60,627 nucleotides of DNA. Origin: an uncultured Gammaproteobacteria bacterium. GTDB taxonomy: Bacteria > Patescibacteriota > Patescibacteriia > Magasanikbacterales > GCA-002688135. The stretch covers positions 12,271 to 72,897 of the forward strand of contig CAZHVT010000003.1 of assembly GCA_964536205.1 (NCBI GenBank), written 5' to 3'. The notes under the pieces were generated by a model. It worked only from the letters and a program-made list of their open reading frames with translations, was not told the origin of the DNA and made no database searches. This document shows positions 8,785 through 60,385 of the stretch, in pieces. The position numbers and the translations under genes are program-made. Position 1 is the first letter of the stretch. Every line of letters starts with the position of its first letter.

Positions 8785-8793
8785 CACCAACGC

Positions 8794-8830
8794 GTCATCC
8801 TGAGCTTGTCGAAGGATCTCGTGAGGATGC
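8794..8830. repeat. GTCATCC-family palindromic repeat (GTCATCCTGAGCTTGTCGAAGGATCTCGTGAGGATGC)
   Basis: Related copies at 35365-35438, 60462-60494 and 18712-18749. Confidence 0.7.
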
Positions 8831-9394: not shown

Positions 9395-9450
9395 TTTTGA
9401 ATTTTGAATTGTGGTTTTTAATTTTTAGCTTTGAGTTTTGATTTAATAAG

Positions 9451-9497
9451 GGATCCCTCGACTGCGCTCGGGATGACAATGGGGCGCTCGGGATGAC
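9451..9497. repeat. GTCATCCCGAGCG..GAGGGATCC-type repeat (reverse orientation) plus partial tandem duplicate GCGCTCGGGATGACAATGG x2
   Basis: Direct read. Confidence 0.65.
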
Positions 9498-9506
9498 AAT
9501 GGAAAT

Positions 9507-10549: not shown

Positions 10550-10622
10550 GTCATCCCGGCGTAGGCCGGGATCCATCTTGCTAAACAGCATGGATCCCGG
10601 CCTACGCCGGGATGACTTTTTT
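10550..10622 (+). terminator. 67-bp perfect palindrome made of two inverted GTCATCCCGGCGTAGGCCGGGATCC repeat units, followed by a T6 tract; nrdB terminator
   Basis: GTCATCCCGGCGTAGGCCGGGATCCAT..ATGGATCCCGGCCTACGCCGGGATGAC then TTTTTT. Confidence 0.7.
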
Positions 10623-13136: not shown

Positions 13137-13208
13137 CATCAACTGTCATTGCGAGGAGGTACGACGAAGCAATCTATCAACATGGATCCCGGCCTTCGCC
13201 GGGATGAC
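13137..13208. repeat. Two adjacent repeats: variant B (GTCATTGCGAGGAGGTACGACGAAGCAATC) and variant C (CATGGATCCCGGCCTTCGCCGGGATGAC)
   Basis: Compare 8904-8941 and 10550-10616. Confidence 0.7.
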
Positions 13209-17259: not shown

Positions 17260-18054
17260 ATGATCGAAGTAATAATTTTAGGCGCAATTCAGGGGATTGC
17301 TGAATGGTTGCCAGTTTCAAGTGAAGGAATGGTTGTGTTGGTTCAGACTGTTTTTTTTGATGAAGCAAATTTTTCCGCATTAGTTAGTTTTGCGATTTGG
17401 TTGCATGTGGGAACTTTTTTTGCGGCGTTGGTGTATTTTTGGAAGGATGTTGTGCGATTAGTTCGTGGGTTGTTTTGTTATAAAAAATCTAGAAAGGAAA
17501 CACAGTCACTTTTACGGTTTTTGATTATTTCTACTTTGATTTCTGGTGGGATTGGATTTGCATTATTGAAAGGATTGGAAGGATTACTGGAGGGGATTGG
17601 TGCGCAAGTATTTTGGATTGTGATGTTGGTTGGTGTTTCTCTGCTCATAACTGGATATTTGCAACTGACTAAGAAAGTTAAGGGGATTCGTAAAGAAGGG
17701 GAGTTGTGTACAAAAGATGCGGTGATTTTGGGGATTGTGCAGGGGTTTGCGATCGTTCCGGGATTGTCGCGTTCTGGTTTAACTGTAGCTGCTTTGTTAT
17801 TGCGAAAGTTTCATGACGTGTCTGCATTGCGATTAAGTTTTTTGATGAGTATGCCGATAGTGCTTGGTGCGAATATTGTGTTGCAGGCTGGAGAATTATC
17901 TATCACAAAAGAATCGCTGATTGGATTGTTTGTAGCTTTTGTATTAGGACTTGCAACAATTCACGGGTTAATGATTTTTGCACGAAAAGTTAATGTGGGA
18001 TTATTTGTTTTATTGTTTGGAATTTTGACGATTGCTTCTGCATTTATTTTGTAA
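17260..18054 (+). CDS. uppP: Undecaprenyl-diphosphatase
   Basis: EWLPVSSEG and GLSRSG motifs; multi-TM. Confidence 0.8.
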   Translation: MIEVIILGAIQGIAEWLPVSSEGMVVLVQTVFFDEANFSALVSFAIWLHVGTFFAALVYFWKDVVRLVRGLFCYKKSRKETQSLLRFLIISTLISGGIGFALLKGLEGLLEGIGAQVFWIVMLVGVSLLITGYLQLTKKVKGIRKEGELCTKDAVILGIVQGFAIVPGLSRSGLTVAALLLRKFHDVSALRLSFLMSMPIVLGANIVLQAGELSITKESLIGLFVAFVLGLATIHGLMIFARKVNVGLFVLLFGILTIASAFIL

Positions 18055-18069
18055 ATGTGAATAAAAAAA

Positions 18070-18098
18070 GAAGACCGCGGCGTACCGCGGTCTTGTGC
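18070..18098. terminator. Hairpin AGACCGCGGCGTACCGCGGTCT flanked by an A-run (left) and a T-containing tract (right); probably bidirectional
   Basis: Direct read. Confidence 0.5.
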
Positions 18099-18263
18099 TT
18101 CATGATCAAACGGTCAACTGGGGGGTTTCCCGTTTACAAGGCGTCCTTATCTGCCTCAGTCAAAGTTAGCCAACCATTTCGCACGATGGAAGTATATATG
18201 TTTTGTTTTGTTGTGTCAATATGATGATAGCAAAAACAACCATCTCGAGGATGGTTGTTTTTC

Positions 18264-18332
18264 TCGGGGACAGGGATTCGAACCCCGATTGGATGCACCA
18301 GAAACATCAGTCCTGCCATTAGACGATCCCCG
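18264..18332 (-). tRNA. tRNA-Gln (anticodon CUG)
   Basis: Minus-strand cloverleaf: acceptor CGGGGAT/GTCCCCG, anticodon stem GATGT/GCATC with loop TTCTGGT, T-loop GGTTCGAATCC; CCA not encoded. Confidence 0.6.
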
Positions 18333-18357
18333 AATATGCGGAATAATACGTTATTTA

Positions 18358-19938
18358 TTACGAACCGTCAACAACTTTACCTCCAAATGTTTTGAGGACT
18401 TCTGCGACAGCTTTGTCTGATTCATCTGCTTGCGCCTCATTAACTGTTGTTTCGATGGTGATTGTTGTGTTGTATGTGTCTGTCAGGGCTTTGTGAATCA
18501 TTTCGCGCACTTGTGGTTCATCGATTCGTTTTTTGTGGAATTCGTAGGGGAATGAGAGGGTGAGTTTGTTTTGTTCGATGTTTGTTGGTTTGCATGTTTT
18601 GATGATGAGGGGGAGTGAGTGATTGTATGTGTGGAGATGTTCGATGAATGTACTCCAATTTTTTTGGATGGCAGGGAGTTCTAGTAATTCATTGTTTTGT
18701 GTCGTACTCTCGGGATCCTTCGACTTCGTTTCACTTCGCTCAGGATGACTCGTTGGTGCGGGTGCTTGCACGATTTCTTGATTTTTTGTTTTCTCGTTTT
18801 TTTGTTCACCAGATTTCTCGTTTTCTCGATTTTTTGATTTCTCGACAAAATTTTCAGCGCCAAGTGCGATTTCAACAGCAGACATTTCAAGCGGAAGATG
18901 AATAATGGGGGAGAGTCCGATTTCACGTCGTCGTTTTATTAAAATATCGAGTGTTGATAATAATCGATGAGTCTCTGTGCTATCTGCAATTTCTTGCAAC
19001 TTTTCTTTGTCTGTTGCATTGAAAAATGAATTTCCTACAGATTTTGTGGATTTGAGTAAAAGTAGTGCTCGAACAATGTCGATTGCGTCATCAATCACAT
19101 GGGGGATATTTGCTCCAGTTTCAATTATTTCGTGCAATGCTTTTAGGCTTTGCTGTGCTTCACCTTGTAATGCATGATTCAAATATGCGATGAGTTGTTC
19201 GTTTTTTCGGGTTGGTAATACAGCTTCTGCATCTTTTGATGTCACGGTTTTGTCTTTTGCGACTGCTATGATTTGTCCTAACAAGCTTTCACCATCACGC
19301 ATTGAACCTTGTGCGCGCCATGCAATGTGATCGAGGATTTCATCATCAATTGTTAAGCCCTCTTTTTTTAATAAGTCTGATAATCGATTTTTTATATCTG
19401 CTGATCCGATGTGTTTAAAAATGAATTGTTGGCATCGTGAAATAATTGTTGCGGGGACTTTGTGGGCTTCTGTGGTTGCCATCACAAAAATTGCATGAGC
19501 TGGTGGTTCTTCGATTGTTTTGAGTAATGCGTTAAATGCGCTGGCGGAAAGCATGTGAACCTCATCGATGATGAAGACTTTGTATTTTGAGGATGTTGGG
19601 GTGAAGCGCGCGTTTTCAATGATGTTTTCACGGACATTGTCTACGCCGGTGTGAGATGCAGCATCAATTTCAATGACGTCTATGGATTGTCCTTTTGCGA
19701 TGGTTGTGCAGCTTTCGCATTCATTGCACGGTTCTGCGGATTTTTCTTTTTTATTTTTACAGTTGAGTGATTTTGCGAGAAGTCGAGCAGAAGTTGTTTT
19801 TCCAACTCCGCGTGGTCCGCAAAATAAAAAAGCCGCAGCGAGCGAACCAGAAATAATTTCTTGGGTGAGTGTTTGTGAAACGTGGGGTTGTGCGATGAGA
19901 TCTGTCCATTGTTGAGGGCGGTGTGTTCGGTGAAGCAT
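18358..19938 (-). CDS. dnaX: DNA polymerase III subunit gamma/tau
   Basis: GPRGVGKTT Walker A, Cys cluster CKNKKEKSAEPCNECESC, clamp-loader motifs. Confidence 0.9.
   Translation of the reverse strand: MLHRTHRPQQWTDLIAQPHVSQTLTQEIISGSLAAAFLFCGPRGVGKTTSARLLAKSLNCKNKKEKSAEPCNECESCTTIAKGQSIDVIEIDAASHTGVDNVRENIIENARFTPTSSKYKVFIIDEVHMLSASAFNALLKTIEEPPAHAIFVMATTEAHKVPATIISRCQQFIFKHIGSADIKNRLSDLLKKEGLTIDDEILDHIAWRAQGSMRDGESLLGQIIAVAKDKTVTSKDAEAVLPTRKNEQLIAYLNHALQGEAQQSLKALHEIIETGANIPHVIDDAIDIVRALLLLKSTKSVGNSFFNATDKEKLQEIADSTETHRLLSTLDILIKRRREIGLSPIIHLPLEMSAVEIALGAENFVEKSKNRENEKSGEQKNEKTKNQEIVQAPAPTSHPERSETKSKDPESTTQNNELLELPAIQKNWSTFIEHLHTYNHSLPLIIKTCKPTNIEQNKLTLSFPYEFHKKRIDEPQVREMIHKALTDTYNTTITIETTVNEAQADESDKAVAEVLKTFGGKVVDGS
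18712..18749. repeat. GTCATCCTGAGCGAAGTGAAACGAAGTCGAAGGATCCC repeat inside the dnaX coding sequence (encodes ..SHPERSETKSKDPES..)
   Basis: Same repeat family as the intergenic copies; reading frame maintained. Confidence 0.7.
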
Positions 19939-19946
19939 AAATTTTT

Positions 19947-20064
19947 AGTAAAGCGTAATGAGTAAAGTGTAATGTGGGTAGCAGAGTCGCCATAGGCGAC
20001 ATATTAATACGTCGCCTATGGCGACACTTTTTTACTCGTTACGCTTTACTCATTACGCGTTACG
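19947..20064. repeat. About 118-bp compound palindrome between dnaX and the upstream gene: GTAAAGCGTAATGAGTAAAG arms, twin GTCGCC(A/T)TAGGCGAC palindromes, T6
   Basis: Direct read; likely terminator of 20060-20842 plus a regulatory region of dnaX. Confidence 0.6.
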
Positions 20065-20842
20065 AGTCGGCTTGTATTGTAACTGCTTCTCTTGTCTTGG
20101 TAAAGCTCTGTATCGTTTCTGTTGTGATATACTCGTTTGGTGAAGACTTAATTGCACGTTCGGCTGCGATGAGTTCTTCTTCGTTATCAATCTCAAGCCA
20201 GCCATGTCCTGAAATATCGCCGATGCGTACTTCGTGATTTTCGTTTGCAAGCTGTGCAAGAATTCCTTCTACGGCGATTGTTCCGTCTGAATCTTTATAC
20301 AGTTTGTTTGCGGTGTTTCGGTATAGTGAAAGTTTTGATTTGTCGATGTATGTCATTCCAACATATCCGTTTGTCCAGTGTGTGAGTTTTTTTGAAATTT
20401 CTTTGACGTTGTTTCCGTAGCGTTCAACTTTCATATCATCTGTTCCGAGTACTCGGTCTGTATCGCAAAATGCGGTGATGCCAAAACATTGTTTTTTGAT
20501 AATTGGTGCTATTGATCTTTTGTAAATGTGATCTGAATTTACGATAAGTATTGAATCATCTACATGAGGGAGCGCGGTCAATAATGTACCGAGATTTCCT
20601 TTTGTTACATCATCAATTTTTAGGAATGTTGTGTCTGGTGCTTTTTTGTCGAGATATGAGCGGACTTTTTCTGCTTCAAAACCCCCCACAACAATAATAT
20701 GATCCACGCCAATATCTCTCAAAAAATTTAATACATAATCAAAAAGAGGTCGGCCGTCCGCCTCAACTAATCCTTTTGTTCTGTCGTGTGTGTATGGTTT
20801 GAGTCGCATGCCGCGACCTGCTGCGAGTAGAATCGCTGTCAT
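20060..20842 (-). CDS. Sugar-phosphate nucleotidyltransferase (NTP-transferase fold)
   Basis: N-terminal LAAGRGMRLKP motif; Rossmann-like. Confidence 0.7.
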   Translation of the reverse strand: MTAILLAAGRGMRLKPYTHDRTKGLVEADGRPLFDYVLNFLRDIGVDHIIVVGGFEAEKVRSYLDKKAPDTTFLKIDDVTKGNLGTLLTALPHVDDSILIVNSDHIYKRSIAPIIKKQCFGITAFCDTDRVLGTDDMKVERYGNNVKEISKKLTHWTNGYVGMTYIDKSKLSLYRNTANKLYKDSDGTIAVEGILAQLANENHEVRIGDISGHGWLEIDNEEELIAAERAIKSSPNEYITTETIQSFTKTREAVTIQADS

Positions 20843-20878
20843 ATTTGAAATTTGGTAACTGGTAACTCGGATAACTAG

Positions 20879-21517
20879 TTACGAAATGATATTTTCAATC
20901 GCACCCCATTGAGACGGAGAATCTTGTGGGACGAGAATGATTGCGCTGTCTCCAACAGTTCCTTTATAAAATGTGACTGATGCTGTGAGGACGTTGTATG
21001 TTTTTCCGTCGACGTGCACTCCATATTGTTTGCTTTCTTGATCGTATACGATAATGCCTTGTAGTCGCGCGCGTTCAGTTGGTCCGATTTGTTTGAAAAC
21101 GTATGCGCCTAGTTTTGTGATAGTGAGTTTCATCATGTCACCTTCCACCAATTTTGATTTTGATGCGTAGTTTGGTGGGATGTTGTATCTTTTTCCGTCA
21201 GCCCCGATCATTTGTTGTCCATCGAAAACTCCTTCAATAATTGTTCCGTCGATTGGTTCTGCATCTTCAAGATTGATGGATGGTTTTGTGTTGAAGTTTG
21301 TTTGTGGTACAGAAGAATCGTCATCCAATAGTTTTGCGACATTTAATAGTTTGCTCGAAATATCACGAAGTGCCTCCCGAACAATTGTCATTTTTTGATC
21401 GTTTTGTTGTGGTGCTGGTGTTGTTGCTTCGGGCTCTTTTGTCTTTGTTGCTTCAAACCCAGAAAATGCCGCTCCTCCTAAAATTTCTGTGATTTTTGAA
21501 AATTGTTTGTTTTCCAT
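20879..21517 (-). CDS. Hypothetical protein (212 aa)
   Basis: ORF only. Confidence 0.45.
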   Translation of the reverse strand: MENKQFSKITEILGGAAFSGFEATKTKEPEATTPAPQQNDQKMTIVREALRDISSKLLNVAKLLDDDSSVPQTNFNTKPSINLEDAEPIDGTIIEGVFDGQQMIGADGKRYNIPPNYASKSKLVEGDMMKLTITKLGAYVFKQIGPTERARLQGIIVYDQESKQYGVHVDGKTYNVLTASVTFYKGTVGDSAIILVPQDSPSQWGAIENIIS

Positions 21518-21571
21518 ACGCTGTAAACCTTATACGAGATGAGTATGTTTGGCAAGGATTGAGAATCAAAA

Positions 21572-21600
21572 AAATATCCCCATTTCTGGGGATATTTTTA
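21572..21600 (-). terminator. Hairpin AAATATCCCCATTTCTGGGGATATTT + T-tract; terminator of the 21609-24593 gene
   Basis: On the minus strand the hairpin is followed by TTTTTTT. Confidence 0.65.
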
Positions 21601-21608
21601 TGTGATTG

Positions 21609-24593
21609 TTATTTGACTCCGCTACGTTGTTTAATTTCGCGTTCTACGATTTCGCGGTCGCGGCCGTAGGTAAGGCGAGAGATTTCGATGAGAGCTTCTC
21701 GGAGTTCGGGATCAGAATCTGGTGGGGGGTATGTTGCAATATTAAATGGTCGTGCTGCAGCTCCATCAACCATGAGTTTGATATATGCATTTCGTGCATC
21801 AATATTCATGAGATCGAATTGATTAAATGTTGGTGCAAATTCAGCTGCGAGAAATTCTGCATCTTCAACACCGACACGGAACGCGACTTTTGTTCCGACG
21901 TTACCGAAAATTGCGTCTTTGATCGCTGGCATTTCTTCTAGTTGTCCGATGTATTGATGGGCAACATTTAATATTAAGCGATATTTACGAGCCTCGGAAA
22001 GAATAGTTGCGACAGTATCGGTGAGGTAGTTTTGAAACTCATCGATATACATGTTGAAATCGACGCGCTGATCTTCTGGTGTGTCAGTTCTTCCGAGCGC
22101 TGCTTGAAGGATTTTACCGATTAAAATGAGTCCGAGTAGGTTTGAGTTTTTGTCGCCAAGTTTTCCTTTTGATAAATTCACCAACAAAATCTTTTTATTA
22201 TCCATGATGTCGCGCATGTCCAGTGAACTTTCTTGTTGTCCGATGATCGGTCGCATAATGTCATTGGAAATAAATTGATTGAGTTTTGTGGTGATGTAGG
22301 GGACCATGTTTTGTAGTGATGCTTCACCGCCAGCTTGTCCAGCTTCTTTAATCCAAAAATCTTTCACTACTTGAATGTTACACTTGGATAATTTGAAATT
22401 GCGGAATTCTTCATCAGCTAAAACTTTTGGAATTTCCATGATTGTGTTTCCGGATTCTGGGTGGGACATGTTGAGCAAGATCGCATTTTTTAGATACGTT
22501 TCAAACATTGGTCCGCCGGTCGCTTTTAGGTCGTAGAGACGATCAAGAATGTTGTAGAATTCATTTACGACAAACGCTTTTTGTTCTGGTTTTGATTCAT
22601 CAAATTCTAGAATGTTCATTCCCATTGGGCGGGCGGTATCTGCGGGATTGAAATATACAACGTCGTCAATGCGCTCGGGCGGAACCGCACCAATAATATC
22701 TTCTGCTAAATCTCCATGTGGGTCCATGATGCAAAATCCGTTGCCAAGTTTTACATCTTGGTTTGCCATGTTTGATAAAAGCGTAGACTTACCCACACCA
22801 GTCATACCAATAGCATACAGATGACGACGTCGATCTTTTACTTTCATGCGCGCATCAGTGCGAACTCTTCGATAAATGTTATAGCCTAGGGTTACACCTT
22901 CTGTAGCCATGTTTGGTGGAGGTGGTGCAGAACGTGAAGTGAGCCACTTAATATTTGGTACTTCCAAAAATGGTGTGGGGACATGCCACAAACTTGCCAA
23001 TTCTTCTGTATTTACTAACAGGTGTTTTTTGTCATCGTACTGACGATAAATAAATTGGTTGATGAGTTTTGCGGGTTTTTTTGGAACGTCAGCTTTAAAA
23101 GAATTTCCGACTTTGAAAAGTGTGAATTGGCTATATCCGGAAAGAACATTTTTTAAAATGATTTGTGCTGTGTTGTCTTGTGGGGCTGAAACAACGATAC
23201 GAATATTACAATCCAATCCTGCGCGAGATTGTTTTTCATCGATTTTTTTGATGGATTCTTGTCCCATCTGTGTGGGAGTATAGGATTCTTTTGGTCCTTC
23301 TTGTTTTGATTCACTTCCTACGCTGTATGAAATAGCTGATGATAAATGTGATCCAATTCCTTTTTTGCCTTGCTTCCCTTCAGAGATTTCTTTGCCAACT
23401 CGTTTTGAATGACCCCTCCATTTTTTATGTGCTGATCGTACGATATATTGAATTGCGACTCCTGCATCTTCTCCAACTTTTGTGAGAGGGGTTAAAATAC
23501 TGTTGAGTGGATCAGTTTCAGTTTCTTGATATGTTTTTATGGGATAGGTGAAAGATCTTGAGAATTTAAGGGCTGCCCCCAGAACTACATCCTTTGGTTT
23601 GAAAAAATTATAGTCATCGACTTCTTCGATTTGGATTGCTGGGTATTGTGCCTGCAATTGTTCTTCTATTGATGTTCGGATTCCTTTGGGAACAACAATG
23701 TAAAAATAAATGAGTCCGCCTTGTGCAACTATTTCAAAGGCTAAGTGATCTGATCGTCCAAACAGCCACGCAAAAAACCCTTTTTGCGCTTTCATATTTC
23801 CGATTGTGTTGAGGAATTGCTCTCCGATCGAGATTTGTGCGCGAATTGCATCTATACCGACGTCGCCAGCTTTGTCTTTCAATTGTTGCTCTTTTGGAAT
23901 GGTGATGAGTAGAGTTACAAGGTGGGCGCTTGGTCCGAAGTCATGTTTTCTTCGTAGGTTTCTGCGAACGATGACAACAAGCAGGATGATAGTGATGATT
24001 GATACTACAACAATCCCGCCGATTAACATGAGCTGATTCACGATATTTGTTGACTGGTTGCCAACTGTTTCTCCTGCTCCGTTAAATAATCCTCCTGCTT
24101 GAAATAACATTACTCCGAACAATCCAGGGGTTCCGTTATCCTCTTCGTGTTTTGAGATAAGTGCATCTGCGCGTTTTTTTGATTCTTTTTCAAGGAAGAA
24201 CTTGTTGACGCCTGGAATTAATTTGAGCCAGTTTGAAATAAGTTGTACGAATTTTTTGAATGATGTTTTTCCTTGATCGAGCATGGTTGAGATTTCACGT
24301 GCGACTTTTTCTCCTGTTGTGGCGAATCTTTCTTGTTCTTGTGGATTCATTTGTTCATAGTATTCTTCTAAATCGCGCGACAATAATTCCTCCACTTGTG
24401 TGTAGGTTTCATCGCCGAGCGCAGGGGTATCATCTGTTAGGATGGTTTTGGTGGGTGCGGTCGGTGTGTGTGTTTCGGTTTGTGTCTGTTCTTGCTGATT
24501 TTCTGATTTTTTTTCGATTTCTGGTTTTTTCGATGTTTCGTTTTCTCGTTGTGGGGGTTGTTCTGCAGGAATGAGATTTGGTGATTCAGACAT
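21609..24593 (-). CDS. Membrane-anchored P-loop NTPase of the FtsK-HerA / TraG-VirD4 (type IV coupling protein-like, DUF87-like) superfamily, 994 aa
   Basis: TM segment GGIVVVSIITIILLVVIV; Walker A IGMTGVGKST; Walker B MYIDEFQNY; C-terminal AHQYIGQL region. Confidence 0.65.
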   Translation of the reverse strand: MSESPNLIPAEQPPQRENETSKKPEIEKKSENQQEQTQTETHTPTAPTKTILTDDTPALGDETYTQVEELLSRDLEEYYEQMNPQEQERFATTGEKVAREISTMLDQGKTSFKKFVQLISNWLKLIPGVNKFFLEKESKKRADALISKHEEDNGTPGLFGVMLFQAGGLFNGAGETVGNQSTNIVNQLMLIGGIVVVSIITIILLVVIVRRNLRRKHDFGPSAHLVTLLITIPKEQQLKDKAGDVGIDAIRAQISIGEQFLNTIGNMKAQKGFFAWLFGRSDHLAFEIVAQGGLIYFYIVVPKGIRTSIEEQLQAQYPAIQIEEVDDYNFFKPKDVVLGAALKFSRSFTYPIKTYQETETDPLNSILTPLTKVGEDAGVAIQYIVRSAHKKWRGHSKRVGKEISEGKQGKKGIGSHLSSAISYSVGSESKQEGPKESYTPTQMGQESIKKIDEKQSRAGLDCNIRIVVSAPQDNTAQIILKNVLSGYSQFTLFKVGNSFKADVPKKPAKLINQFIYRQYDDKKHLLVNTEELASLWHVPTPFLEVPNIKWLTSRSAPPPPNMATEGVTLGYNIYRRVRTDARMKVKDRRRHLYAIGMTGVGKSTLLSNMANQDVKLGNGFCIMDPHGDLAEDIIGAVPPERIDDVVYFNPADTARPMGMNILEFDESKPEQKAFVVNEFYNILDRLYDLKATGGPMFETYLKNAILLNMSHPESGNTIMEIPKVLADEEFRNFKLSKCNIQVVKDFWIKEAGQAGGEASLQNMVPYITTKLNQFISNDIMRPIIGQQESSLDMRDIMDNKKILLVNLSKGKLGDKNSNLLGLILIGKILQAALGRTDTPEDQRVDFNMYIDEFQNYLTDTVATILSEARKYRLILNVAHQYIGQLEEMPAIKDAIFGNVGTKVAFRVGVEDAEFLAAEFAPTFNQFDLMNIDARNAYIKLMVDGAAARPFNIATYPPPDSDPELREALIEISRLTYGRDREIVEREIKQRSGVK

Positions 24594-25969: not shown

Positions 25970-26014
25970 CTGTATTTGTGACATGATGCTTGCAGTTCGT
26001 TACAGGAGAAATAA

Positions 26015-26668
26015 TTGAAAACATTTAGTTTGTTTTGTGTTTTGAGTGTGTTTGTTTCGTGTGGTGCTTCACGTGTTGCGCCTAAATTAGTGGTTACGTC
26101 GTCCCGTCCACCCACACCTGCGGAAATTAAGGCGATTGAAGCAGCAGATGCAGCGGACGAGAAGGAGGCTGCCAGTGAGTATAATGAGTTTTATGACATT
26201 GCAAATCGTCGGCAACTTACTATTGCTCGTGGTATGATGCGATCCGCAGAAGGGAAGTATGATTTGCGTCTTAAGGCGATTATGCATTGGGTGGGAGTGT
26301 TTGAAGCTTTAAAAAAGCAATCTATTCCTTCAGGCTTGCGTGATAGCATAGATGAGTTTTTGCAGAGCATTTTACGCCCTCATCTCATCTTGATTAAAAC
26401 GTATGATACTGCGGTTGTAGAGTTTGGTGGTAGTTTTGAGGTGACGCTTGAGGCGTGGCAGAATGATCGTCGTTCGTTCAGTACTGAGGCATCTCACAAA
26501 TTGTTGTTTGAGAAACTCAATAAAGATATGCATAGAGTCGTTACGTTGAATCGACGAATAAAGACGGTCACTACGTTGTACGTAAAAGCCCTTAGTGAAG
26601 TGGTAGATAGCACGTGTGCGTGGGCTCGTACGAAACGTTTACAGTTTGATTATTGTCCAGAAAAATAG
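26015..26668 (+). CDS. Putative lipoprotein (signal peptide with VSCG lipobox-like site)
   Basis: N-terminal hydrophobic segment ending FVSCGAS. Confidence 0.45.
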   Translation: MKTFSLFCVLSVFVSCGASRVAPKLVVTSSRPPTPAEIKAIEAADAADEKEAASEYNEFYDIANRRQLTIARGMMRSAEGKYDLRLKAIMHWVGVFEALKKQSIPSGLRDSIDEFLQSILRPHLILIKTYDTAVVEFGGSFEVTLEAWQNDRRSFSTEASHKLLFEKLNKDMHRVVTLNRRIKTVTTLYVKALSEVVDSTCAWARTKRLQFDYCPEK

Positions 26669-26678
26669 GTTAAAAAAT

Positions 26679-26709
26679 GGACTCCTGTACGCAGGAGTCC
26701 TTTTTTTAT
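26679..26709. terminator. Bidirectional terminator GGACTCCTGTACGCAGGAGTCC + T8, between convergent genes
   Basis: Direct read. Confidence 0.7.
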
Positions 26710-26719
26710 TTTTCTACTT

Positions 26720-28090
26720 TTATTTTTCTACGACTTTCGTTCCTTCTTTTGTGTCTTCTATTGCGTAGCCGGCGTTTTCGATTTTTTGGCGGAGTGTGTC
26801 GGCGAGTTTGAAATCTTTTGCGTCGCGTGCGGCGTTTCTTTCGGCTGCAAGTTTTGTGATTTCATCTGGAACTTCAAGGGGTTTTGCTATCCATTGATCT
26901 AATCCTAATCCCAATACATGATCCATGTGTAACAATGTTGCGGCTCTCATGCTTGATGGATGATCTGATTTTATGATTTCCCACATCAATGCGAGCGCTT
27001 GTGGTGTGTTTAAATCATCTTCTAATTTTTCTTTGAACTGTGTAAGCCATTTTTCATCGACGTGATCTGGTTCGTTCCAATCTCGAACTTCGTTTCGAAT
27101 GTTGTGTAGTGCGTTTTGTGCGGCTTCAAGTGCTTCTGTGGTGAATGTGAGAGGAGAGCGATAATGCGTATTTAAAATGAAATATCTGTATGATAAAGGA
27201 TGAAAACCTTGTTTTTTTATGTCTGAAAGACTGACGACGTTTCCGTCGGATTTTGCCATTTTATCATCGCCGAGTACGACGAATTCTCCATGCACCCACC
27301 AATTTGCAAGCATTTCATCATGCGCTGCAGTTGATTGTGCGATTTCGTTTTCGTGATGAACAGGAATTAAATCTATTGCGCCGGTGTGAATATCAAATGG
27401 TTGACCGAGATGTTTTGCAGACATAGCAGAGCATTCCACATGCCATCCGGGAAAACCAATTCCCCATGGTGATTCCCATTCCATTTGTCGTTGTTCATCT
27501 TGTGGAGAAAATTTCCACAATGCAAAATCTGTAATGTTCTTCTTTTCGGGATTTTTTGCAACGCGTGCTCCTTCTTCTTTATCTTCTGCTTTTTGTCTGG
27601 AGAGATTTCCGTAGTTTTCAAATTTTGATGTATCGAAGTAGATGCCGTCTGTAATCTTGTATGTGAATCCCTTTTCTTCGAGTTTTTTGATTAATGCGAT
27701 TTGTTCTTCTATATGTTCAGTTGCTTTGGGAAATACATCGGCTGGTAATAGGTTTAGTTCTTTCATGTCGCGCATGAATTCATCTGTGTAAAATTGTGCG
27801 ATTTCTGCTGCTGATTTATTTTCTCGTTTTGCGGCTTCTTCCATTTTATCTTGATCTGTTTCTGATATGAGATGTCCGACATCTGTAATGTTCATGACAT
27901 GTTTTACATCAAATCCTAAAAACATGAGTGTTCGTTTTAAAATATCTGCCATGGTGAAGGAGCGCATGTTTCCAATGTGTGCTGATGAATATACTGTTGG
28001 TCCACAGGTATACATGCCAACTTTTTTTCCGGAAAGTGGTTTGAATTCGTTTTTAGATCGTGTTTTTGTGTTGTAGAGTTTGAGGGACAT
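26720..28090 (-). CDS. cysS: Cysteine--tRNA ligase
   Basis: HIGN-type HIGH motif (SAHIGNMRS), KMAKSDG (KMSKS), Zn-binding Cys. Confidence 0.9.
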   Translation of the reverse strand: MSLKLYNTKTRSKNEFKPLSGKKVGMYTCGPTVYSSAHIGNMRSFTMADILKRTLMFLGFDVKHVMNITDVGHLISETDQDKMEEAAKRENKSAAEIAQFYTDEFMRDMKELNLLPADVFPKATEHIEEQIALIKKLEEKGFTYKITDGIYFDTSKFENYGNLSRQKAEDKEEGARVAKNPEKKNITDFALWKFSPQDEQRQMEWESPWGIGFPGWHVECSAMSAKHLGQPFDIHTGAIDLIPVHHENEIAQSTAAHDEMLANWWVHGEFVVLGDDKMAKSDGNVVSLSDIKKQGFHPLSYRYFILNTHYRSPLTFTTEALEAAQNALHNIRNEVRDWNEPDHVDEKWLTQFKEKLEDDLNTPQALALMWEIIKSDHPSSMRAATLLHMDHVLGLGLDQWIAKPLEVPDEITKLAAERNAARDAKDFKLADTLRQKIENAGYAIEDTKEGTKVVEK

Positions 28091-29954: not shown

Positions 29955-29979
29955 GGATTCCCGCCTTCGCGGGAATGAC
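29955..29979. repeat. GGATTCCCGCCTTCGCGGGAATGAC repeat (GTCAT-family variant) in the pilM leader
   Basis: Hairpin CCCGCCTTCGCGGG with the GTCAT-like terminus. Confidence 0.55.
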
Positions 29980-29989
29980 AATTTGTAAT

Positions 29990-31081
29990 ATGGGTTTATT
30001 TTCTAAGAAAGAAGAATCAATTTTAGGAGTTGATTTGGGTGCATCAAGTGTGAAGATGGTGGAATTGAAAAAGGAGAAACACCAAATGCATTTGGTGACC
30101 TATGGATATAGTTCTGGGGATTTGAAATTGCCAGATGATGATTTGGAGCAGAGGAATTTGCAGGCTGCGCTTATTAAGAAGGTTGCGGAAGGTTCAAAGG
30201 TGAAAACAAAAAATGTGATTGCGTCTGTTCCACTATCTGATGTATTTTCTGCTGTAGTTCGTATTCCGAATGTTGCAAAAAAAGAACAATCTGCTTTGAT
30301 TGAACGTGAGGCGCAGAAATTTTTACCTTTTCCTGTTGCCGAGGCTGTGGTTGATTGGAAAGTAATTGAAGATAAGAAAAAGAAGAAAGAAGCAAAGGGA
30401 AAAAGTTTTGAACATCAGAAGAAGGAGTTGGCGAAGGATATTTCTGCGTTGATTACAGCTGCGCCGCGTTCTACGGTTACGAGAATTGCAGATATTTTTA
30501 AACGCGCAGGATTTACTTTAAAGAGTTTGGAAACTGAAGCATTTGCTTTGACACGATCGTTAATTGGAAATGATCCGACAAGTGTATTGTTGGTTGATGT
30601 TGGTGCGGTGCGATCTAACTTTTTTGTGGTTGAAAATACGCTACCTGTGATGCATCGATCTATGCAGTTGGGTGGTGTGAATTTTACACAAGCTTTGGAT
30701 AATGTGTTGAAGGTTGGTTTGGAGAAAGCTGAACAAATGAAATCTGATATTATGTCGACGGGTGCGATTGAAGCGGATGAAACTGGATTTCCGAAAATTT
30801 TTCAACAAACGATTCAGCCACTTATTAATGAGATTCGTTATACCATGAACTTATATACGACACAGCAAGGTGGTACACATCCGGAGCGAATTGTGTTGAC
30901 TGGTGGTTCGTCATTGTTGCCACATTTAGATGCGTTTTTATCACATACATTTAATATGAAAGTGTTTGTGGGAGATCCATGGGCACGAACATGGTATCCG
31001 GAGAATTTACGTCCGGCATTATATGAAATTGGAACGCGTTTTGCGGTGTCTGTGGGATTAGCATTGAGGGAGGGGCAATAA
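29990..31081 (+). CDS. pilM: Type IV pilus assembly ATPase-like protein PilM
   Basis: LGVDLGASSVKMVEL actin-like N-terminus. Confidence 0.8.
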   Translation: MGLFSKKEESILGVDLGASSVKMVELKKEKHQMHLVTYGYSSGDLKLPDDDLEQRNLQAALIKKVAEGSKVKTKNVIASVPLSDVFSAVVRIPNVAKKEQSALIEREAQKFLPFPVAEAVVDWKVIEDKKKKKEAKGKSFEHQKKELAKDISALITAAPRSTVTRIADIFKRAGFTLKSLETEAFALTRSLIGNDPTSVLLVDVGAVRSNFFVVENTLPVMHRSMQLGGVNFTQALDNVLKVGLEKAEQMKSDIMSTGAIEADETGFPKIFQQTIQPLINEIRYTMNLYTTQQGGTHPERIVLTGGSSLLPHLDAFLSHTFNMKVFVGDPWARTWYPENLRPALYEIGTRFAVSVGLALREGQ

Positions 31082-31090
31082 TACATTTTT

Positions 31091-31462
31091 ATGGCCAAAC
31101 CTCTTATTGAAATGGTTTCGACTGATGCGCATTTGATTGAGATCTACGAGGAGTTATTTCAGGAGAAAGGATTTGCATTCAAGCATTCGCCAAAAGGAGA
31201 AAAGGCGTTTAAGGTGATCAAAGAGAAAAAACCTTTTGCGATTTTGTTGGATATGGCGATAGCAGGTGAAGATGGTTTTGATTTGATCAGTAAGTTGCGA
31301 AAATTTCAGACATTGAAGAAAATTCCGATTGTTGTTTTGTCTCATGTTTCGGATGAAGCGGATGTAAAGCGAGCGCAGAAATTTGGTATTGAACATTATT
31401 GTTTAAAATTGCATTGTCATCCAGAGCGCATTGTTGAGCGCGTGGAGGCATTAAAAAAATAA
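31091..31462 (+). CDS. Stand-alone response-regulator receiver domain (PilH/CheY-like)
   Basis: ILLDMAIAGEDGFDL acceptor-Asp context and conserved Lys region. Confidence 0.7.
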   Translation: MAKPLIEMVSTDAHLIEIYEELFQEKGFAFKHSPKGEKAFKVIKEKKPFAILLDMAIAGEDGFDLISKLRKFQTLKKIPIVVLSHVSDEADVKRAQKFGIEHYCLKLHCHPERIVERVEALKK

Positions 31463-35355: not shown

Positions 35356-35364
35356 CATCAACGT

Positions 35365-35438
35365 GTCATCCTGAGCTTGTCGAAGGATATCGTGAGGAAT
35401 TTTGATGGGATCCTTCGACTGAAAACGCTCAGGATGAC
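35365..35438. repeat. Inverted pair of GTCATCCTGAGC..CGAAGGATATC / GGGATCCTTCGA..GCTCAGGATGAC repeats between gatC and gatA
   Basis: Direct read; the long ORF-track start of gatA runs through it. Confidence 0.7.
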
Positions 35439-35451
35439 GATTCTATATACT

Positions 35452-36879
35452 ATGGATATACAAGAATTAACAATTGAACAAGCTTTAGCAAAAATGGAAT
35501 CGGGAGAAGTGACTGCTGTGGGAATTTTGGATGCGTGTCTAAAGAATATTGTGGATCAAGAGGATGACGTCCATGCGTTTTTGGAGGTGTGGGAAAAGGA
35601 TGCCAAAAAACAGGCGAAATCTGTAGATGATCGTCGTGCGAACGGAAAACCGGTTGGATTGTTGGCGGGGATTCCGATTGCTGTTAAAGATAATATTTTG
35701 TATGTCGATCATGTGGTTTCTGGAGCATCGAAAATTTTGGAACCGTATAAAGCTGCATATAGTGCGACAGTTGTAGAGAAATTATTAGCTGAAGATGCTG
35801 TTTTAATCGGTCGCACAAATTGTGATGAATTTGCGTGTGGTGGATCAACTGAAAATTCTGGTTTTGGTCCAACGCATAATCCGCATGAGCCTACGCGCGT
35901 TCCGGGTGGATCTTCTGGTGGTTCTGCGGCAGCGGTTGCTGCAGGGATGTGTTTGGCCGCGCTTGGTTCTGATACAGGTGGATCGATTCGTCAGCCTGCA
36001 AGTTTTTGTGGAGTAGTTGGTTTGAAACCAACGTATGGCAGAGTTTCGCGTTATGGTTTGATGTCGATGTCTTCAAGTTTGGATCAAATTGGGCCGATTG
36101 GAAAAAATGTTGATGATTGTGCGAGGATTTTGAATGTGATTGAAGGGAAGGATGACATGGATGCAACGAGCGTGAGTCATGCGCCAACATCTGTTGAGGC
36201 TGTTGCACATTTTGAGGATTCATCATTTTTATCTGAAATGACGATTGGAGTGCCGAAAGAATTTTTTGACACAGAGGGTATTGATCCTGCGGTTGCTGAA
36301 ATGGTTCGTGAGAAGATAGTTTCATTAGAAACCCGGGGTGCGACGATTAAAGAAATTAGTTTAGCTCATTCAGCTCATGCATTAGCAACATATTATGTTT
36401 TGATGCCGTCTGAAGTTTCGTCAAATACTGCACGTTATGATGGTGTCCGATATGGATTATCTGAAGGCACATCTTTAGATGAGGTGTATGTCAAAACACG
36501 TACTGCTGGTTTTGGCGCTGAAGTGAAGCGACGCATTTTGTTAGGAACGTTTGCTTTATCGGAAGGATATGTTGATGCCTATTATAAAAAATCTGTAGCA
36601 GTGCGGCAGGAAATTGAACAGGAATTTTTACAGGCTTTTGATGAGGTTGATGTGATCGTGTCACCAACATCTCCGGTAACTGCGTTTAAGTTGGGTGAGC
36701 GAATTGCAGATCCTATTACGATGTATCTATCTGATGTATATACAGTTTCTGCAAACTTGGCTGGAATTCCTGCGATTAGTGTGCCGTGCGGTGAGGTTGA
36801 TGGTTTGCCCGTTGGAATTCAGTTTATGACTCCACATTTTAAAGAAGATCGTTTATTACATATAGCTTCGTACATATGA
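35452..36879 (+). CDS. gatA: Glutamyl-tRNA(Gln) amidotransferase subunit A
   Basis: Amidase signature (GGSSGGSAAAVA..), start moved to MDIQELT downstream of the repeat. Confidence 0.9.
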   Translation: MDIQELTIEQALAKMESGEVTAVGILDACLKNIVDQEDDVHAFLEVWEKDAKKQAKSVDDRRANGKPVGLLAGIPIAVKDNILYVDHVVSGASKILEPYKAAYSATVVEKLLAEDAVLIGRTNCDEFACGGSTENSGFGPTHNPHEPTRVPGGSSGGSAAAVAAGMCLAALGSDTGGSIRQPASFCGVVGLKPTYGRVSRYGLMSMSSSLDQIGPIGKNVDDCARILNVIEGKDDMDATSVSHAPTSVEAVAHFEDSSFLSEMTIGVPKEFFDTEGIDPAVAEMVREKIVSLETRGATIKEISLAHSAHALATYYVLMPSEVSSNTARYDGVRYGLSEGTSLDEVYVKTRTAGFGAEVKRRILLGTFALSEGYVDAYYKKSVAVRQEIEQEFLQAFDEVDVIVSPTSPVTAFKLGERIADPITMYLSDVYTVSANLAGIPAISVPCGEVDGLPVGIQFMTPHFKEDRLLHIASYI

Positions 36880-46021: not shown

Positions 46022-46105
46022 AATTAGCGATTAGCGTGAAGCGTTTAGCGATTAGTAGGCAGTACCCTCTAATCGCTAAACGCTAAAAGCTAAACGCTAA
46101 ACGCT
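46022..46105. repeat. Hairpin AGCGTTTAGCGATTAG-loop-CTAATCGCTAAACGCT (16-bp perfect stem) in an array of TAGCGAT/TAAACGC heptamers
   Basis: Loop is the near reverse complement of the 45452 loop, so the unit occurs in both orientations. Confidence 0.7.
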
Positions 46106-46111
46106 TTCCTC

Positions 46112-46531
46112 ATGTATTCATCTACCAAACAAAAAGGAGCGGTTGCACTTATCACTGTTATTATTGTTGGTTCGGCTGCTTTAATCATGGCGTTTAATGC
46201 GATTCTTTTGGGGTTGAATGAAATTGAAATCGGGACGCTGCATAAAAAGAGTGCGCAAGCATTTGGGATTGCGGATGGTTGTATGGAGGAGTCTCTTATT
46301 CAGATCAGAAAAGATAATACGTATGGAGTTGGTTCGGGTACAATTTTATTGTCTCTGCTTGATGAAACCTGTACAATAGTGGTAACTGATTTGGGATCGA
46401 ATCAACGTCGCGTGAATGTTTTGTCTACTGTAGATGAGGAATATCATAAACGACTTGAGGTGACGTTAACGTTGACAGGAACGAATTTGAATATTATTAC
46501 GATTGATACGTGGGAGGAAAAAGATTCTTAG
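46112..46531 (+). CDS. Pilin-like protein (atypical N-terminus QKG|AVALITVIIVGSAAL)
   Basis: Hydrophobic N-terminal helix after a G; pilus cluster context. Confidence 0.45.
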   Translation: MYSSTKQKGAVALITVIIVGSAALIMAFNAILLGLNEIEIGTLHKKSAQAFGIADGCMEESLIQIRKDNTYGVGSGTILLSLLDETCTIVVTDLGSNQRRVNVLSTVDEEYHKRLEVTLTLTGTNLNIITIDTWEEKDS

Positions 46532-46537
46532 AAACAA

Positions 46538-46606
46538 GGGATTAGCGTTTAGCATTTGGCGTTTAGAAAGCAGCCTCTAATCGCTAAATGCTAATCGCTA
46601 AACGCT
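46538..46606. repeat. Imperfect long hairpin of TAGCGTTTAGCATTTGGCGTTTAG / CTAATCGCTAAATGCTAATCGCTAAACGC abutting the 46614 ATG
   Basis: Direct read. Confidence 0.6.
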
Positions 46607-46613
46607 TTCATCT

Positions 46614-48368
46614 ATGGACGCGTTTAGTATCTTCTGCCCGCACATGTCATTTCTAAGGAGAACATCTATCGCCATCGATATTAGTGATCGCTCGATCGCG
46701 CTTGTTCGGTTGCAAAAGGGAGCGGGGAAGGTGAAGGTTACACATCATGGTCGAGTTGGATTTCCAGAGGGAATTGTTTCTGCTGGGCGTGTGGTTAATC
46801 CAAAAGCTTTGAAAAAAGTTCTGGATCATTTGTTTGAGGTTGTGAAACCATCGTCAATCAAACCGTCTGAATTGATTGTTTCGTTGGCAGATCAATTGGT
46901 TTTTACGCATGTTTTTGAGCTTGAGCCGCATGACAAGGGTGATCGTGATGATATTGTGGCGGATGAGGTTCGCAATACGATTCCGATTTCAGAACAAGAT
47001 ACACAATTTGAATATGTTGTTTTGCATGAGGATAAAGAGGGGGTGCGCGTGCTTGTGACGGCGGTGAGTAAGAAGGAATTGACTGCATGGCGTAAGATTT
47101 TGAAATTGTCTGGTGTGAAAGTTTCTTTTTTTGATACTCAAATGTTGAGTGTGCATAGAGGATTGTTTAAGGGTTATCCGAGTGATTCTACGCTATTGAT
47201 TGATGTGGGTTCTGTTTCTACTAGTATGTCTGTGTTTGATGAATTTGGATTGTTGTACATTCACACAATTTTTTCTGCTGGGGATGCTATGACTGCGTTG
47301 ATAGCTGAATCGCAAAGTATTTCAATGAAAGATGCAGAGTTATTAAAACGTAATGAAGGATTGTCCAATCCAGGAAGTGCAGTTGCGAGTGTTGCCGTGA
47401 AACATTTAGAACCAATTATTCGTGCGGCAAAAGAATCGCTTGATTATGCAAAAGGTCACGGAGTTGAGGGTGAGATTGATGTTGTTTTGGTTGGGGGTAC
47501 TGCGCGCATGAAAGGTGTGGTGAAATATTTTGAAGCAAATTTGCAGGAGCCTGTTGTGCGAGGTGTTGCGGATTGGACGAAACCAAAATTGTCATTGTCA
47601 TACGTTGGAGCGGCTGGAGCGGCGCGTAAAGGATTGATGAAATCTCGTCATCCGGATCCTGTGTTTGCGACAGAGCGTGCTTCGTTTGTGAGTATGAAGA
47701 ACATGTTTAAGGGTTTGAAAAAAAGTAAAAAGAGTCCAGTTGGTGATACTGAAACAGAACAGATTACAGTTCCAGCCCAAAGCAAAACTATGATGCTGTT
47801 GAGTGTTTTGATGATTAGTGTGGTTTTGTTGGGTGGCGTGTGGTTGTTTCAGAAAAAAGAAAAGAAATCGGACCAAGAGAAAGAGGCTGCACAATCTGTG
47901 TATGTGCATGAATCTACGATTGTGGTATCTGCATTATTGGCAACATCTGATGAAAAATATGGAAGCGATCGTATTTCCGGACGCATTGTTGAAAATAAGA
48001 TTCAGGAAGCGATTAGTTATGGTAATGCAGTTGGACAATCTCGTGAGAAAGCAATGGATACATTGCGGGATGATGAGGTTTTGTGGCCGATTCCTATGTA
48101 TCGCGTTGATGAAGAGTATCCAATTAATTTTAGATGGTTTATGTATAATCAATCTGAAATGGATGGTCGATTTAAGGCTGACATAGATTCTCGAAATGAT
48201 GGAAATGTGGATTATATTATTAAGACAACATTGCCGGTAAAATGGGAATTTACGGAAGATATTGAAGTATTGCGTGTTGAGGCACAAGTTACGATTGCAG
48301 CGCAACAACCGTTTGTAGATAAGGGGGTAGAGAAGCCGGTTATAAAAGTTGAGTCTGTGGATGAATAA
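46614..48368 (+). CDS. PilM-like actin-fold protein fused to a TM segment and a PilN/PilO-like periplasmic domain
   Basis: N-terminal IAIDISDRSIALVRL PilM-like motif; TM at about residue 390 (MMLLSVLMISVVLLGGVWLF); 190-aa C-terminal domain. Confidence 0.6.
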   Translation: MDAFSIFCPHMSFLRRTSIAIDISDRSIALVRLQKGAGKVKVTHHGRVGFPEGIVSAGRVVNPKALKKVLDHLFEVVKPSSIKPSELIVSLADQLVFTHVFELEPHDKGDRDDIVADEVRNTIPISEQDTQFEYVVLHEDKEGVRVLVTAVSKKELTAWRKILKLSGVKVSFFDTQMLSVHRGLFKGYPSDSTLLIDVGSVSTSMSVFDEFGLLYIHTIFSAGDAMTALIAESQSISMKDAELLKRNEGLSNPGSAVASVAVKHLEPIIRAAKESLDYAKGHGVEGEIDVVLVGGTARMKGVVKYFEANLQEPVVRGVADWTKPKLSLSYVGAAGAARKGLMKSRHPDPVFATERASFVSMKNMFKGLKKSKKSPVGDTETEQITVPAQSKTMMLLSVLMISVVLLGGVWLFQKKEKKSDQEKEAAQSVYVHESTIVVSALLATSDEKYGSDRISGRIVENKIQEAISYGNAVGQSREKAMDTLRDDEVLWPIPMYRVDEEYPINFRWFMYNQSEMDGRFKADIDSRNDGNVDYIIKTTLPVKWEFTEDIEVLRVEAQVTIAAQQPFVDKGVEKPVIKVESVDE

Positions 48369-55351: not shown

Positions 55352-55435
55352 TCGTAAAGTGTAATGAGTAAGGCGTAAAGCGTTTGTATGTGGTATTGTC
55401 GAGATCGCATTACGCATTACGCTTTACGCATTACG
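55352..55435. repeat. Inverted CGTAAAGTGTAATGAGTAAGGCGTAAAGCG / CGCATTACGCATTACGCTTTACGCATTACG arms flanking TGTATGTGGTATTGT in the rluB-dnaG divergent region
   Basis: Same motif family as 19947-20064. Confidence 0.6.
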
Positions 55436-60376: not shown

Positions 60377-60385
60377 TTGGGGTTT

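Follow-up and report, generated by a model that had tools for sequence, protein, structure and literature searches.

Among the short hairpin repeats that are dispersed through bacterial genomes, those closest to the element described here are the CGTC-tagged repetitive extragenic palindromes (REPs) defined by Di Nocera, De Gregorio & Rocco (2013, BMC Genomics 14:522; PMC3733652). These have an unpaired tag (CGTC, TGTC or CCTC), a stem of 8-9 bp that starts A-T, T-A, a loop of 4-5 nt and a 3-nt tail close to CCA; they mostly form HH dimers, lie next to the 3' ends of open reading frames (ORFs) and have no dedicated transposase (PMC3733652). The group CGTC-1 comprises Neisseria dRS3 and the Rickettsia palindromic element (RPE) RPE-6 of R. 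conorii, and CGTC-4 includes RPE-4 (PMC3733652). The same survey describes an unexplained excess of intragenic, in-frame REPs in replication and repair genes, with dnaE among those listed, and it may have missed units that have bulges or unpaired residues (PMC3733652). Here we describe a repeat of this kind that is read in frame within dnaX, the gene for the DNA polymerase III gamma/tau subunit, in a 60,627-nt stretch of DNA from an uncultured patescibacterium (GenBank assembly GCA_964536205.1, contig CAZHVT010000003.1, positions 12,271 to 72,897), hereafter the window. We suggest that this copy is very probably a REP-type insertion carried as an in-frame passenger in a disordered linker of DnaX.

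The host gene occupies 18358-19938 on the minus strand and encodes 526 residues, in which Pfam recognizes DNA_pol3_delta2, an ATPase lid, DNA_pol3_gamma3 (domain III, residues 233-361) and, weakly, DnaX_C (residues 421-500). Thousands of DnaX homologues align with it from end to end, the nearest named ones being those of Patescibacteria. The minus strand from 18749 to 18712 reads GTCATCCTGAGCGAAGTGAAACGAAGTCGAAGGATCCC, and the ORF runs uninterrupted through GTCATCCTGAGCG..GTCGAAGGATCCC, encoding ..TSHPERSETKSKDPEST..; the translation across the unit is ...APAPTSHPERSETKSKDPESTTQ..., its context also being written ...QAPAPTSHPERSETKSKDPESTTQNN.... The unit-encoded peptide takes up residues 394-413, that is between the end of domain III (361) and the start of DnaX_C (421). 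The ORF translation and the repeat pattern counts given below agree with the sequence-only reading of this DNA that dnaX reads straight through a repeat unit at 18712-18749, and the Pfam placement confirms that the unit adds residues to the linker between the ATPase and C-terminal parts. The copy carries the rare tag variant AGTC, and from its interior, GAAG-TGAAAC-GAAG, it fits the GNAG-[variable]-GNAG form of the family layout GAGC-GNAG-[variable]-GNAG-TCGA.

That the segment belongs to a repeat family follows from its occurrence elsewhere in the window. The pattern CATCCYGAGC-N0-25-TCGARGGAT matches seven times against 0.00 expected (100 shuffles), the 16-nt head six times against 0.36 expected and the 11-nt tail five times against 0.48. 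In total, the window holds seven units of this type (class A) and at least five units of related classes (B and C), all of which share GTCAT...ATC (Table 1). In three cases two units form an inverted dimer whose GTC ends face outwards (HH dimers; 10550/10590, 13145/13184 and 35365/35407). The tags are CGTC (8794, 35407, 60462), TGTC (9450, 35365 and all class B units), AGTC (dnaX) and TTTC (60385). Class B units have the layout (T)GTC-ATCCCGGC-G(T/A)AG-GCCGGGAT-CCA, with the variant arms ATTCCCGC/GCGGGAAT at 29955-29979 on the minus strand, and class C is represented by one unit in the window. Of the 12 full units, all but the dnaX copy are intergenic, at distances of 8-11 nt from stop or start codons. 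Rfam gave nothing at gathering thresholds at any unit, and E-value scans of unit-rich stretches gave chance matches to terminator-like parts only.

These counts bear on the possibility that chance or convergence in composition made a native linker resemble the repeat, or that the intergenic copies were derived from a segment of dnaX. The linker is of low complexity, with many K, E, S and T residues, and the linkers of homologues are highly variable, as such a scenario would have it. However, the dnaX copy has exact 16-nt and 11-nt matches to the family, of which none is expected for the whole pattern, the motif is found in many phyla, the segment is missing from the two nearest orthologues, one of which has a 51-nt empty site, and the intergenic copy at 60462 has the same flanking CGAGAGT(T)AC. 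We consider this scenario hardly credible, and chance resemblance of a native linker in particular was rejected, as it is contradicted by the window counts and the empty site.

The boundaries of the insertion emerge from a comparison with the nearest orthologues of the window DnaX, P0002 (locus L002; 72% identical) and P0003 (locus L005; 71% identical). The dnaX gene of L005 keeps an uninterrupted site, in which CCGCACCAAC is joined directly to ACAAAAC, and reads ...CCGCACCAAC ACAAAAC ATC GAACTCCC... (peptide PTTAPTQNIELP); the window gene reads ...CCCGCACCA[ACGAGTCATCC...GGATCCCGAGAGTACG]ACACAAAAC...GAACTCCC. Removing exactly 51 nt (18703-18753) yields the contiguous 18-nt run CCGCACCAACACAAAACA, identical to L005 dnaX, and raises the local alignment score against L005 from 45 to 74. 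The joints are ambiguous by 2-3 nt, AC(G) being repeated at both ends. No unit is found in L002 dnaX, nor elsewhere in the 12.6 kb of L002. The head and tail of the dnaX copy are base-for-base identical to the intergenic copies. Given that the 3' extension CGAGAGT(T)AC is common to the dnaX copy and the intergenic unit at 60462, it belongs to the element; given that CACCAAC is present at the empty site of L005, this heptamer belongs to the presumed target and not to the element.

Judged from these alignments, the dnaX segment is an insertion of a dispersed repeat and not old coding sequence. The insertion proposed in the sequence-only reading therefore stands, at a different size: the inserted segment is 51 nt (18703-18753) and 17 residues long, and not 38 nt and 12-13 residues. 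Alignment of orthologues, the check it had suggested, gave absence of the insert from L002 and a clean empty site in L005, and the alternative it had raised, a sequence anciently conserved at the protein level, disagrees with the absence from both nearest orthologues and with the identity of head and tail to intergenic copies. A single ancestral insertion for the window and L005 is ruled out, since the L005 gene has a unit of a different class, ~45 nt upstream of an empty site that is intact.

Metagenome assemblies are prone to chimeric joins at repeats, and a repeat-induced misjoin could in principle have put the unit into dnaX. However, the identical DnaX, or the part that covers the unit, is present on JGI contigs of 8 kb and 38 kb and on NCBI/ENA contigs of up to 153 kb, and neither the reading frame nor the orthologous sequence breaks off at either side of the unit, so that we attach practically no weight to an assembly artefact. 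The unit is present in all three members of the 90%-identity DnaX cluster, whose contigs come from different sources and samples. For one of them, P0122, the NCBI/ENA assembly calls dnaX as a 398-residue product from Met129; its unit region is identical, and the short call suggests a frameshift or a miscalled start upstream in that record.

Comparison with the CGTC REPs reveals extensive similarities. The window family has the unpaired NGTC tag, the A-T, T-A start of the stem, the 3-nt tail and the HH dimers; its units lie near ORF ends (8-11 nt, compared with up to ~20 nt in the published survey), in-frame copies occur in dnaX, UvrC and RecG, and no dedicated transposase gene was found among the 42 ORFs scanned in the window, which is part of a genome. 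Class B units fit CGTC-1 point by point, with a perfect 8-bp stem, the 4-nt loops GTAG or GAAG and the tail CCA. Unlike the CGTC REPs, class A units, including the dnaX copy, have five Watson-Crick pairs (ATCCY/RGGAT) followed by G.A, A.G and G-C, their loop is either GNAG or GNAG-[variable hairpin]-GNAG, and their tail is CYC and not CCA (CCC in the dnaX copy). The class A peptides (VILSE.., HPERSE.., ..AQDD, ..LRMT) are not in the list of intragenic REPs in PMC3733652, Patescibacteria and dnaX are not among its hosts and targets, and a CAYCAAC target is not described there. Literature searches by repeat sequence or peptide strings gave unrelated primer matches only. On its sequence features we assign the dnaX copy, as a putative member, to the CGTC-tag superfamily and to a family that PMC3733652 does not list. 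The analogy to RPEs that had been drawn from the sequence is appropriate in that RPE-6 (CGTC-1) and RPE-4 (CGTC-4) are part of this superfamily (PMC3733652). Events of this type have been described before, and what is new here is the lineage and the gene in which it occurs, the precise limits of the insert and the heptamer proposed as its target.

The description of the dnaX copy as palindromic was overstated. The copy is closed by a stem of only 5 bp (ATCCY/RGGAT), and its folding is poorer than that of shuffled sequences (RNA, -5.8 kcal/mol, z +1.7; DNA, -1.0 kcal/mol). A class B unit folds at -16.3 kcal/mol (z -3.5) and the dimer at 35365-35438 at -40.2 kcal/mol (z -7), and strong folding is found only in class B units and dimers. 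A strong hairpin for single class A units was rejected, DNA and RNA folding being no better than in shuffles.

Two other known systems are relevant. RPE-1-type elements are, according to the account of Ogata et al. (2000) in PMC10969869, ~100-150 bp long, encode a conserved peptide of 30-50 residues and are confined to Rickettsia. As far as that account goes, the similarity is that dispersed palindromic repeats lie in frame in probably functional genes and are compatible with fold and function, and the differences are the size of the dnaX insert (51 nt, 17 residues), the host (Patescibacteria) and the presence of the family across many phyla; the dnaX copy does not count among these long elements. 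The GTAG REPs and REPINs of Escherichia coli and Pseudomonas are likewise short tagged hairpins that form inverted dimers, adjoin stop codons and make up within-genome populations; as with these REPs and their REP-associated tyrosine transposases (RAYTs), we propose an insertion of HUH type, by way of single-stranded DNA (ssDNA), that takes place beside a short target and leaves no long target-site duplication. The family described here differs from them in that the tag is NGTC ((C/T)GTC) and not GTAG/GTRG, and in that no cognate RAYT was found in the window.

Insertions in dnaX recur. At the DNA level, the dnaX linkers of at least five Patescibacteria carry units (the window, L005, L007, L129 and L130); orientations and frames differ among them, all four open frames being used, and in L129 and L130 whole tags-outside inverted dimers are translated inside the linker. 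L129 and L130 use different frames for the reverse unit that they have at corresponding positions (ARDD versus LGMT), which would mean either that an older insertion has been followed by compensating indels around it or that the insertions were independent. Among the best 120 DnaX homologues, ~12 show peptide signatures of the family, and these are nearly confined to the linker. Elsewhere, in-frame copies are found in UvrC (Shapirobacteria), in RecG (a dimer), in a Prevotella glycoside hydrolase family 2 (GH2) enzyme and in a methyltransferase. The search for further in-frame copies, which had been suggested together with the question whether this family behaves like the RPEs of Rickettsia, was thus successful both in dnaX orthologues and in these four proteins of other genomes, and the family shows the same tolerance for in-frame units.

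To describe the family more broadly, a class A motif scan was made with one genome per species; it returned at least 120 loci, and 155 units among the matches listed were analysed. The hosts among these matches include Verrucomicrobia, Acidobacteria, Chloroflexota, Firmicutes, Fibrobacter, Bacteroidales, Bifidobacterium, Alpha- and Gammaproteobacteria, Planctomycetes, Omnitrophota and several groups of the Candidate Phyla Radiation (CPR). In the 155 units the tag is TGTC in 98, CGTC in 36, GGTC in 13 and AGTC in eight, and the closing pair covaries (T-A in 82, C-G in 68 and mismatched in five; 150/155 paired). The interior is either minimal, GAGC-GNAG-TCGA (40/155), or GAGC-GNAG-[GC-rich hairpin]-GNAG-TCGA, and the 3-nt tail (CYC) is CTC, CCC or CTG. 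Dimers have their tags outside (HH) in 14 cases and inside (TT) in two. Units are depleted in long open frames, in which 26 of the 155 units lie compared with 411 of 595 random positions. There is selection against coding positions, with genuine in-frame exceptions.

What allows the dnaX copy to be such an exception? In an AlphaFold2 model of DnaX the mean predicted local distance difference test score (pLDDT) is 78; residues 366-417 score 28-43, i.e. below 50, between flanking domains that are modelled with confidence, and have no secondary structure beyond residue 374. The insert is thus predicted to lie in an intrinsically disordered linker between domain III and the C-terminal domain. Stop codons interrupt no more than two of the six frames of the unit (TCA TCC TGA forward and ..TCA GGA TGA reverse), and the dnaX copy is read in the HPER.. 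frame.

Combining these observations, we suggest that in this lineage dnaX acquired one copy of a short dispersed hairpin repeat, which is non-coding and of the CGTC/TGTC-tagged REP type, directly 3' of a CACCAAC heptamer; that the reading frame and the domains would have survived because 51 nt is a multiple of three, the frame is one of the four that are stop-free and the linker is disordered; and that the unit would be translated as 17 extra residues, TSHPERSETKSKDPEST. In this model, the insert is a tolerated passenger: we found no evidence for a function of its own within DnaX. The same process has added single units or dimers to the dnaX linkers of other Patescibacteria and is in that way one source of variation in linker length.

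Alternatively, the unit could be kept for a role as RNA or DNA in dnaX, i.e. in mRNA processing or stability or as a pause or gyrase site, rather than being merely tolerated. A role as RNA elements close to the 3' ends of ORFs has been proposed for extragenic REPs, and intragenic REPs are in excess in replication and repair genes (PMC3733652), and units recur in the dnaX linkers of several lineages. However, the single class A unit is predicted to be weakly structured, and class, orientation, number and position of the units vary among dnaX orthologues, many of which have no unit; tolerance fits these data better, and we regard a retained role as improbable.

E. coli and Thermus make the shorter gamma form of DnaX by frameshifting or slippage at A-runs in dnaX. 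Similarly, the window gene contains the in-phase heptamers A AAA AAC and A AAA AAT at gene nt 1136-1157 (18782-18803 on the minus strand; A7 and A6 runs), and the -1 frame ends at the TGA in the unit. A -1 frameshift or slippage at these upstream runs would lead to the stop in the unit head (TCA TCC TGA) and give a gamma-like product of 399 residues without the C-terminal domain. In L005 (A9) and L130 (A8), A-runs lie 10-17 nt from the units of those genes. The position after domain III, the upstream A-runs and the -1-frame stop are as in E. coli and Thermus; in contrast to these, a stimulatory structure at the right distance is absent, there is no conservation among orthologues and a short product is not evidenced. 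The A-runs of the window gene lie 32-50 nt from the hairpin, which is too far for a frameshift stimulator, and this hairpin is itself weak (z +1.7). Moreover, off-frame reading in an AT-rich linker soon meets a stop, as it also does at other A-runs in dnaX, the orthologues carry units of other classes, orientations or frames, or none, and the -1 frame in L005, read by eye, appears to be without a nearby stop. A link between the unit and gamma/tau production is not supported, and that the unit helps to make a gamma-like DnaX seems to us very improbable. Of the gamma/tau-like linker variability suggested in the sequence-only reading, the part that holds is the contribution of units to linker length variation; for a gamma-like product, the -1-frame stop is all that can be cited. 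As a separate observation, slippage-prone A-runs recur in CPR dnaX linkers (window, L005 and L130).

Several points weigh against a REP-type insertion carried as an in-frame passenger. The closest orthologues are only 71-72% identical to the window DnaX, so that a precise deletion in L005 may formally be an alternative, and in the protein collection there is no unit-less allele at >90% identity, all three cluster members having the unit. The class A stem, with five Watson-Crick pairs, tandem G.A and one G-C, does not strictly conform to the published stem and loop definition. No transposase, of the Y1/HUH family or otherwise, was found among the 42 ORFs scanned in the window (40 and dnaX by Pfam; ORF 17260-18054 listed as BacA), and tblastn with four RAYT cores detected only two weak RAYT-like ORFs in 251 loci, neither of them flanked by units. 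Translation of the unit is deduced solely from the intact downstream frame and the conserved C-terminal domain, and the neutrality of the insert is an assumption.

The two RAYT-like Y1/HUH ORFs, L064 3765-4253 on the minus strand and L138 173-622 on the plus strand, have an HIH/HFH motif and ..Y(I/Q)xxNPV... The contigs of L064 (titled Acidobacteriales) and L138 are GC-rich (0.60), and class A units lie ~560 nt and 2.9 kb from these ORFs, a weak lead to a mobiliser. An all-against-all clustering of 2456 ORFs near units gave no recurrent neighbour family except ABC ATPases and kinases.

CAYCAAC lies within 1-2 nt upstream of the tag in five window units (four of class A and one of class C) and in the class B unit of L005 (Table 1). 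The heptamer occurs 72 times on both strands of the window, and two of its copies directly follow a stop codon (TAG-CACCAAC and TAA-CATCAAC). In the pan-bacterial listing it adjoins none of the 155 units, and CAYCAAC as part of the element was rejected on this ground and because the empty site in L005 keeps CACCAAC. A metagenome scan for CAYCAAC followed by the head gave many matches, but these are forced by the pattern and carry little weight. The HUH enzymes of IS200/IS605 and the RAYTs direct insertion to the 3' side of a short, specific sequence and make no real target duplication, and mobilisation of the repeat described here would most likely be a hairpin-guided, single-strand insertion 3' of a short target in the same manner; this mechanism is put forward as a hypothesis. 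Because three classes share CAYCAAC and because the empty site retains it, insertion can be read as site-specific. We tentatively extend this reading to the idea, doubtful as it is at present, that CGTC-type REPs are still mobile in this lineage, that they insert just 3' of CAYCAAC and that the DnaX linker is a recurrent landing pad. If true, a trans-acting HUH-like or other ssDNA enzyme would read the target rather than the hairpin sequence, and landing in the disordered DnaX linker would drive the evolution of linker length.

Table 1. Repeat units, adjoining heptamers and related features in the window and in orthologous dnaX loci
Feature	Position	Strand	Description
Insertion in dnaX, ACGA-GTCATCCTGAGC-GAAG-TGAAAC-GAAG-TCGAAGGATCCC-GAGAGTACG	18703..18753 (gene nt 1186-1236)	-	51 nt, 17 codons; encodes TSHPERSETKSKDPEST
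Hairpin unit proper in dnaX	18712..18749	-	Tag (A)GTC, closing stem ATCCT/AGGAT, core GAGC-GAAG-[TGAAAC]-GAAG-TCGA, tail CCC
CACCAAC heptamer	18752..18758	-	Immediately 5' of the dnaX insertion; presumed target; present at the L005 empty site
CAYCAAC next to units	8785-8791, 13137-13143, 18752-18758 (-), 35356-35362, 60453-60459; L005 ~1572-1578
Class A unit	8794..8820	+	Follows the ribonucleotide reductase large-subunit gene, 9 nt from its stop; CACCAAC before the unit
Class A unit (9450-9477) with duplicated partial head (9486-9497)	9450..9497	-	Tag 9 nt upstream of the ribonucleotide reductase small-subunit start
Class B dimer, perfect hairpins, tags outside	10550-10576, 10590-10616	+, -	TGTC-ATCCCGGC-GTAG-GCCGGGAT-CCA; 8 nt after the ribonucleotide reductase small-subunit stop; 10550..10616 with 27-nt arms, 100% complementary; CGTC-1-like
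Heterodimer, tags outside	13145..13208	+, -	Class C GTCATTGCGAGGAGGTACGACGAAGCAATC 13145-13174 (+, after CATCAAC) and class B 13184-13208 (-), 11 nt upstream of the next ORF start
Single class B unit GTCATTCCCGCGAAGGCGGGAATCC	29955..29979	-	Adjoins the start of ORF 29975-31081
Possible partial head CATTGTCATCCAGAGCGCATT	31411..31431	+	18/19 matches to the head CATTGTCATCCCGAGCGC (copy at 9486-9500); status uncertain
Class A dimer, tags outside	35365-35390, 35407-35438	+, -	Fills the spacer downstream of gatC, before ORF 35434-36879; CATCAAC before the first unit
Two class A units	60385-60411, 60462-60492	+	Flank an intrinsic-terminator-like hairpin downstream of ORF 58892-60376; CACCAAC before the second unit
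L005 dnaX, class B unit	~45 nt upstream of the empty site		VIPAQAGIQ; preceded by CATCAAC
L007 dnaX, reverse class A unit			RDPSSAKASLGMT
L129 dnaX, dimer	1441-1515		VIPTAVEESLTPDERDPSATYARDDK
L130 dnaX, dimer	4147-4235

Some of the tabulated features touch neighbouring genes. In ORF 29975-31081 the first ATG overlaps the class B tag, and the next in-frame ATG lies ~10 nt beyond the tag. The possible partial head at 31411-31431 lies in the C-terminus (a helix region) of the 123-residue ORF 31091-31462, where it is read HCHPERIVERV, and may be a captured partial unit or a coincidence; the C-terminal sequence of this ORF, judged by eye, is presumably a response-regulator receiver domain.

The window contains further repeats. 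A 116-nt near-perfect palindrome at 19948-20063 has 58-nt arms that are 81% complementary, with no spacer and with motifs of the GTAAAGCG/TAATGAG-like type; it takes up almost all of the spacer that separates the dnaX start from the upstream NTP-transferase gene, the stop end of which is overlapped by the final 4 nt of the palindrome. A second, unrelated repeat family at 46024-46106, 46529-46614 and 55368-55434 consists of inverted intergenic arrays of the heptamer-like motifs TTAGCG, TAAAGCG and ATTAGCG. The GC skew of the window is very strong, at +0.25 to +0.40, and tracks gene orientation, falling to 0.05-0.18 in the regions of minus-strand genes (1-5000, 18000-24000 and 26000-28000); because it follows gene orientation, it reflects an excess of G over C on the coding strand and is not a replication signal. 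At 1408-3063 on the minus strand, a 551-residue protein combines a major vault protein shoulder, Vault_3 repeats and SPFH/Band 7, an unusual combination for a CPR bacterium. Finally, a tRNA-like 5' half, GGTAGCTCAGTGGTAGAGC..., runs on the plus strand from 60560 up to the window end at 60627; it is not called by ARAGORN or Rfam, and the sequence after its D-arm is unlike a normal anticodon arm and may be cut off or interrupted.

The dnaX insertion extends REP/RPE-type translation inside essential genes to the ultra-small-genome bacteria of the CPR, and dnaX joins the replication and repair genes that are decorated by such repeats. The pair of filled and empty sites fixes the insert at 51 nt, suggests a target heptamer and in that way provides a handle on the movement of CGTC-type REPs. 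For annotation, the peptides VILSE.., HPERSE.., ..AQDD and ..L(R/G)MT in linkers or short ORFs should be taken as signatures of the repeat.

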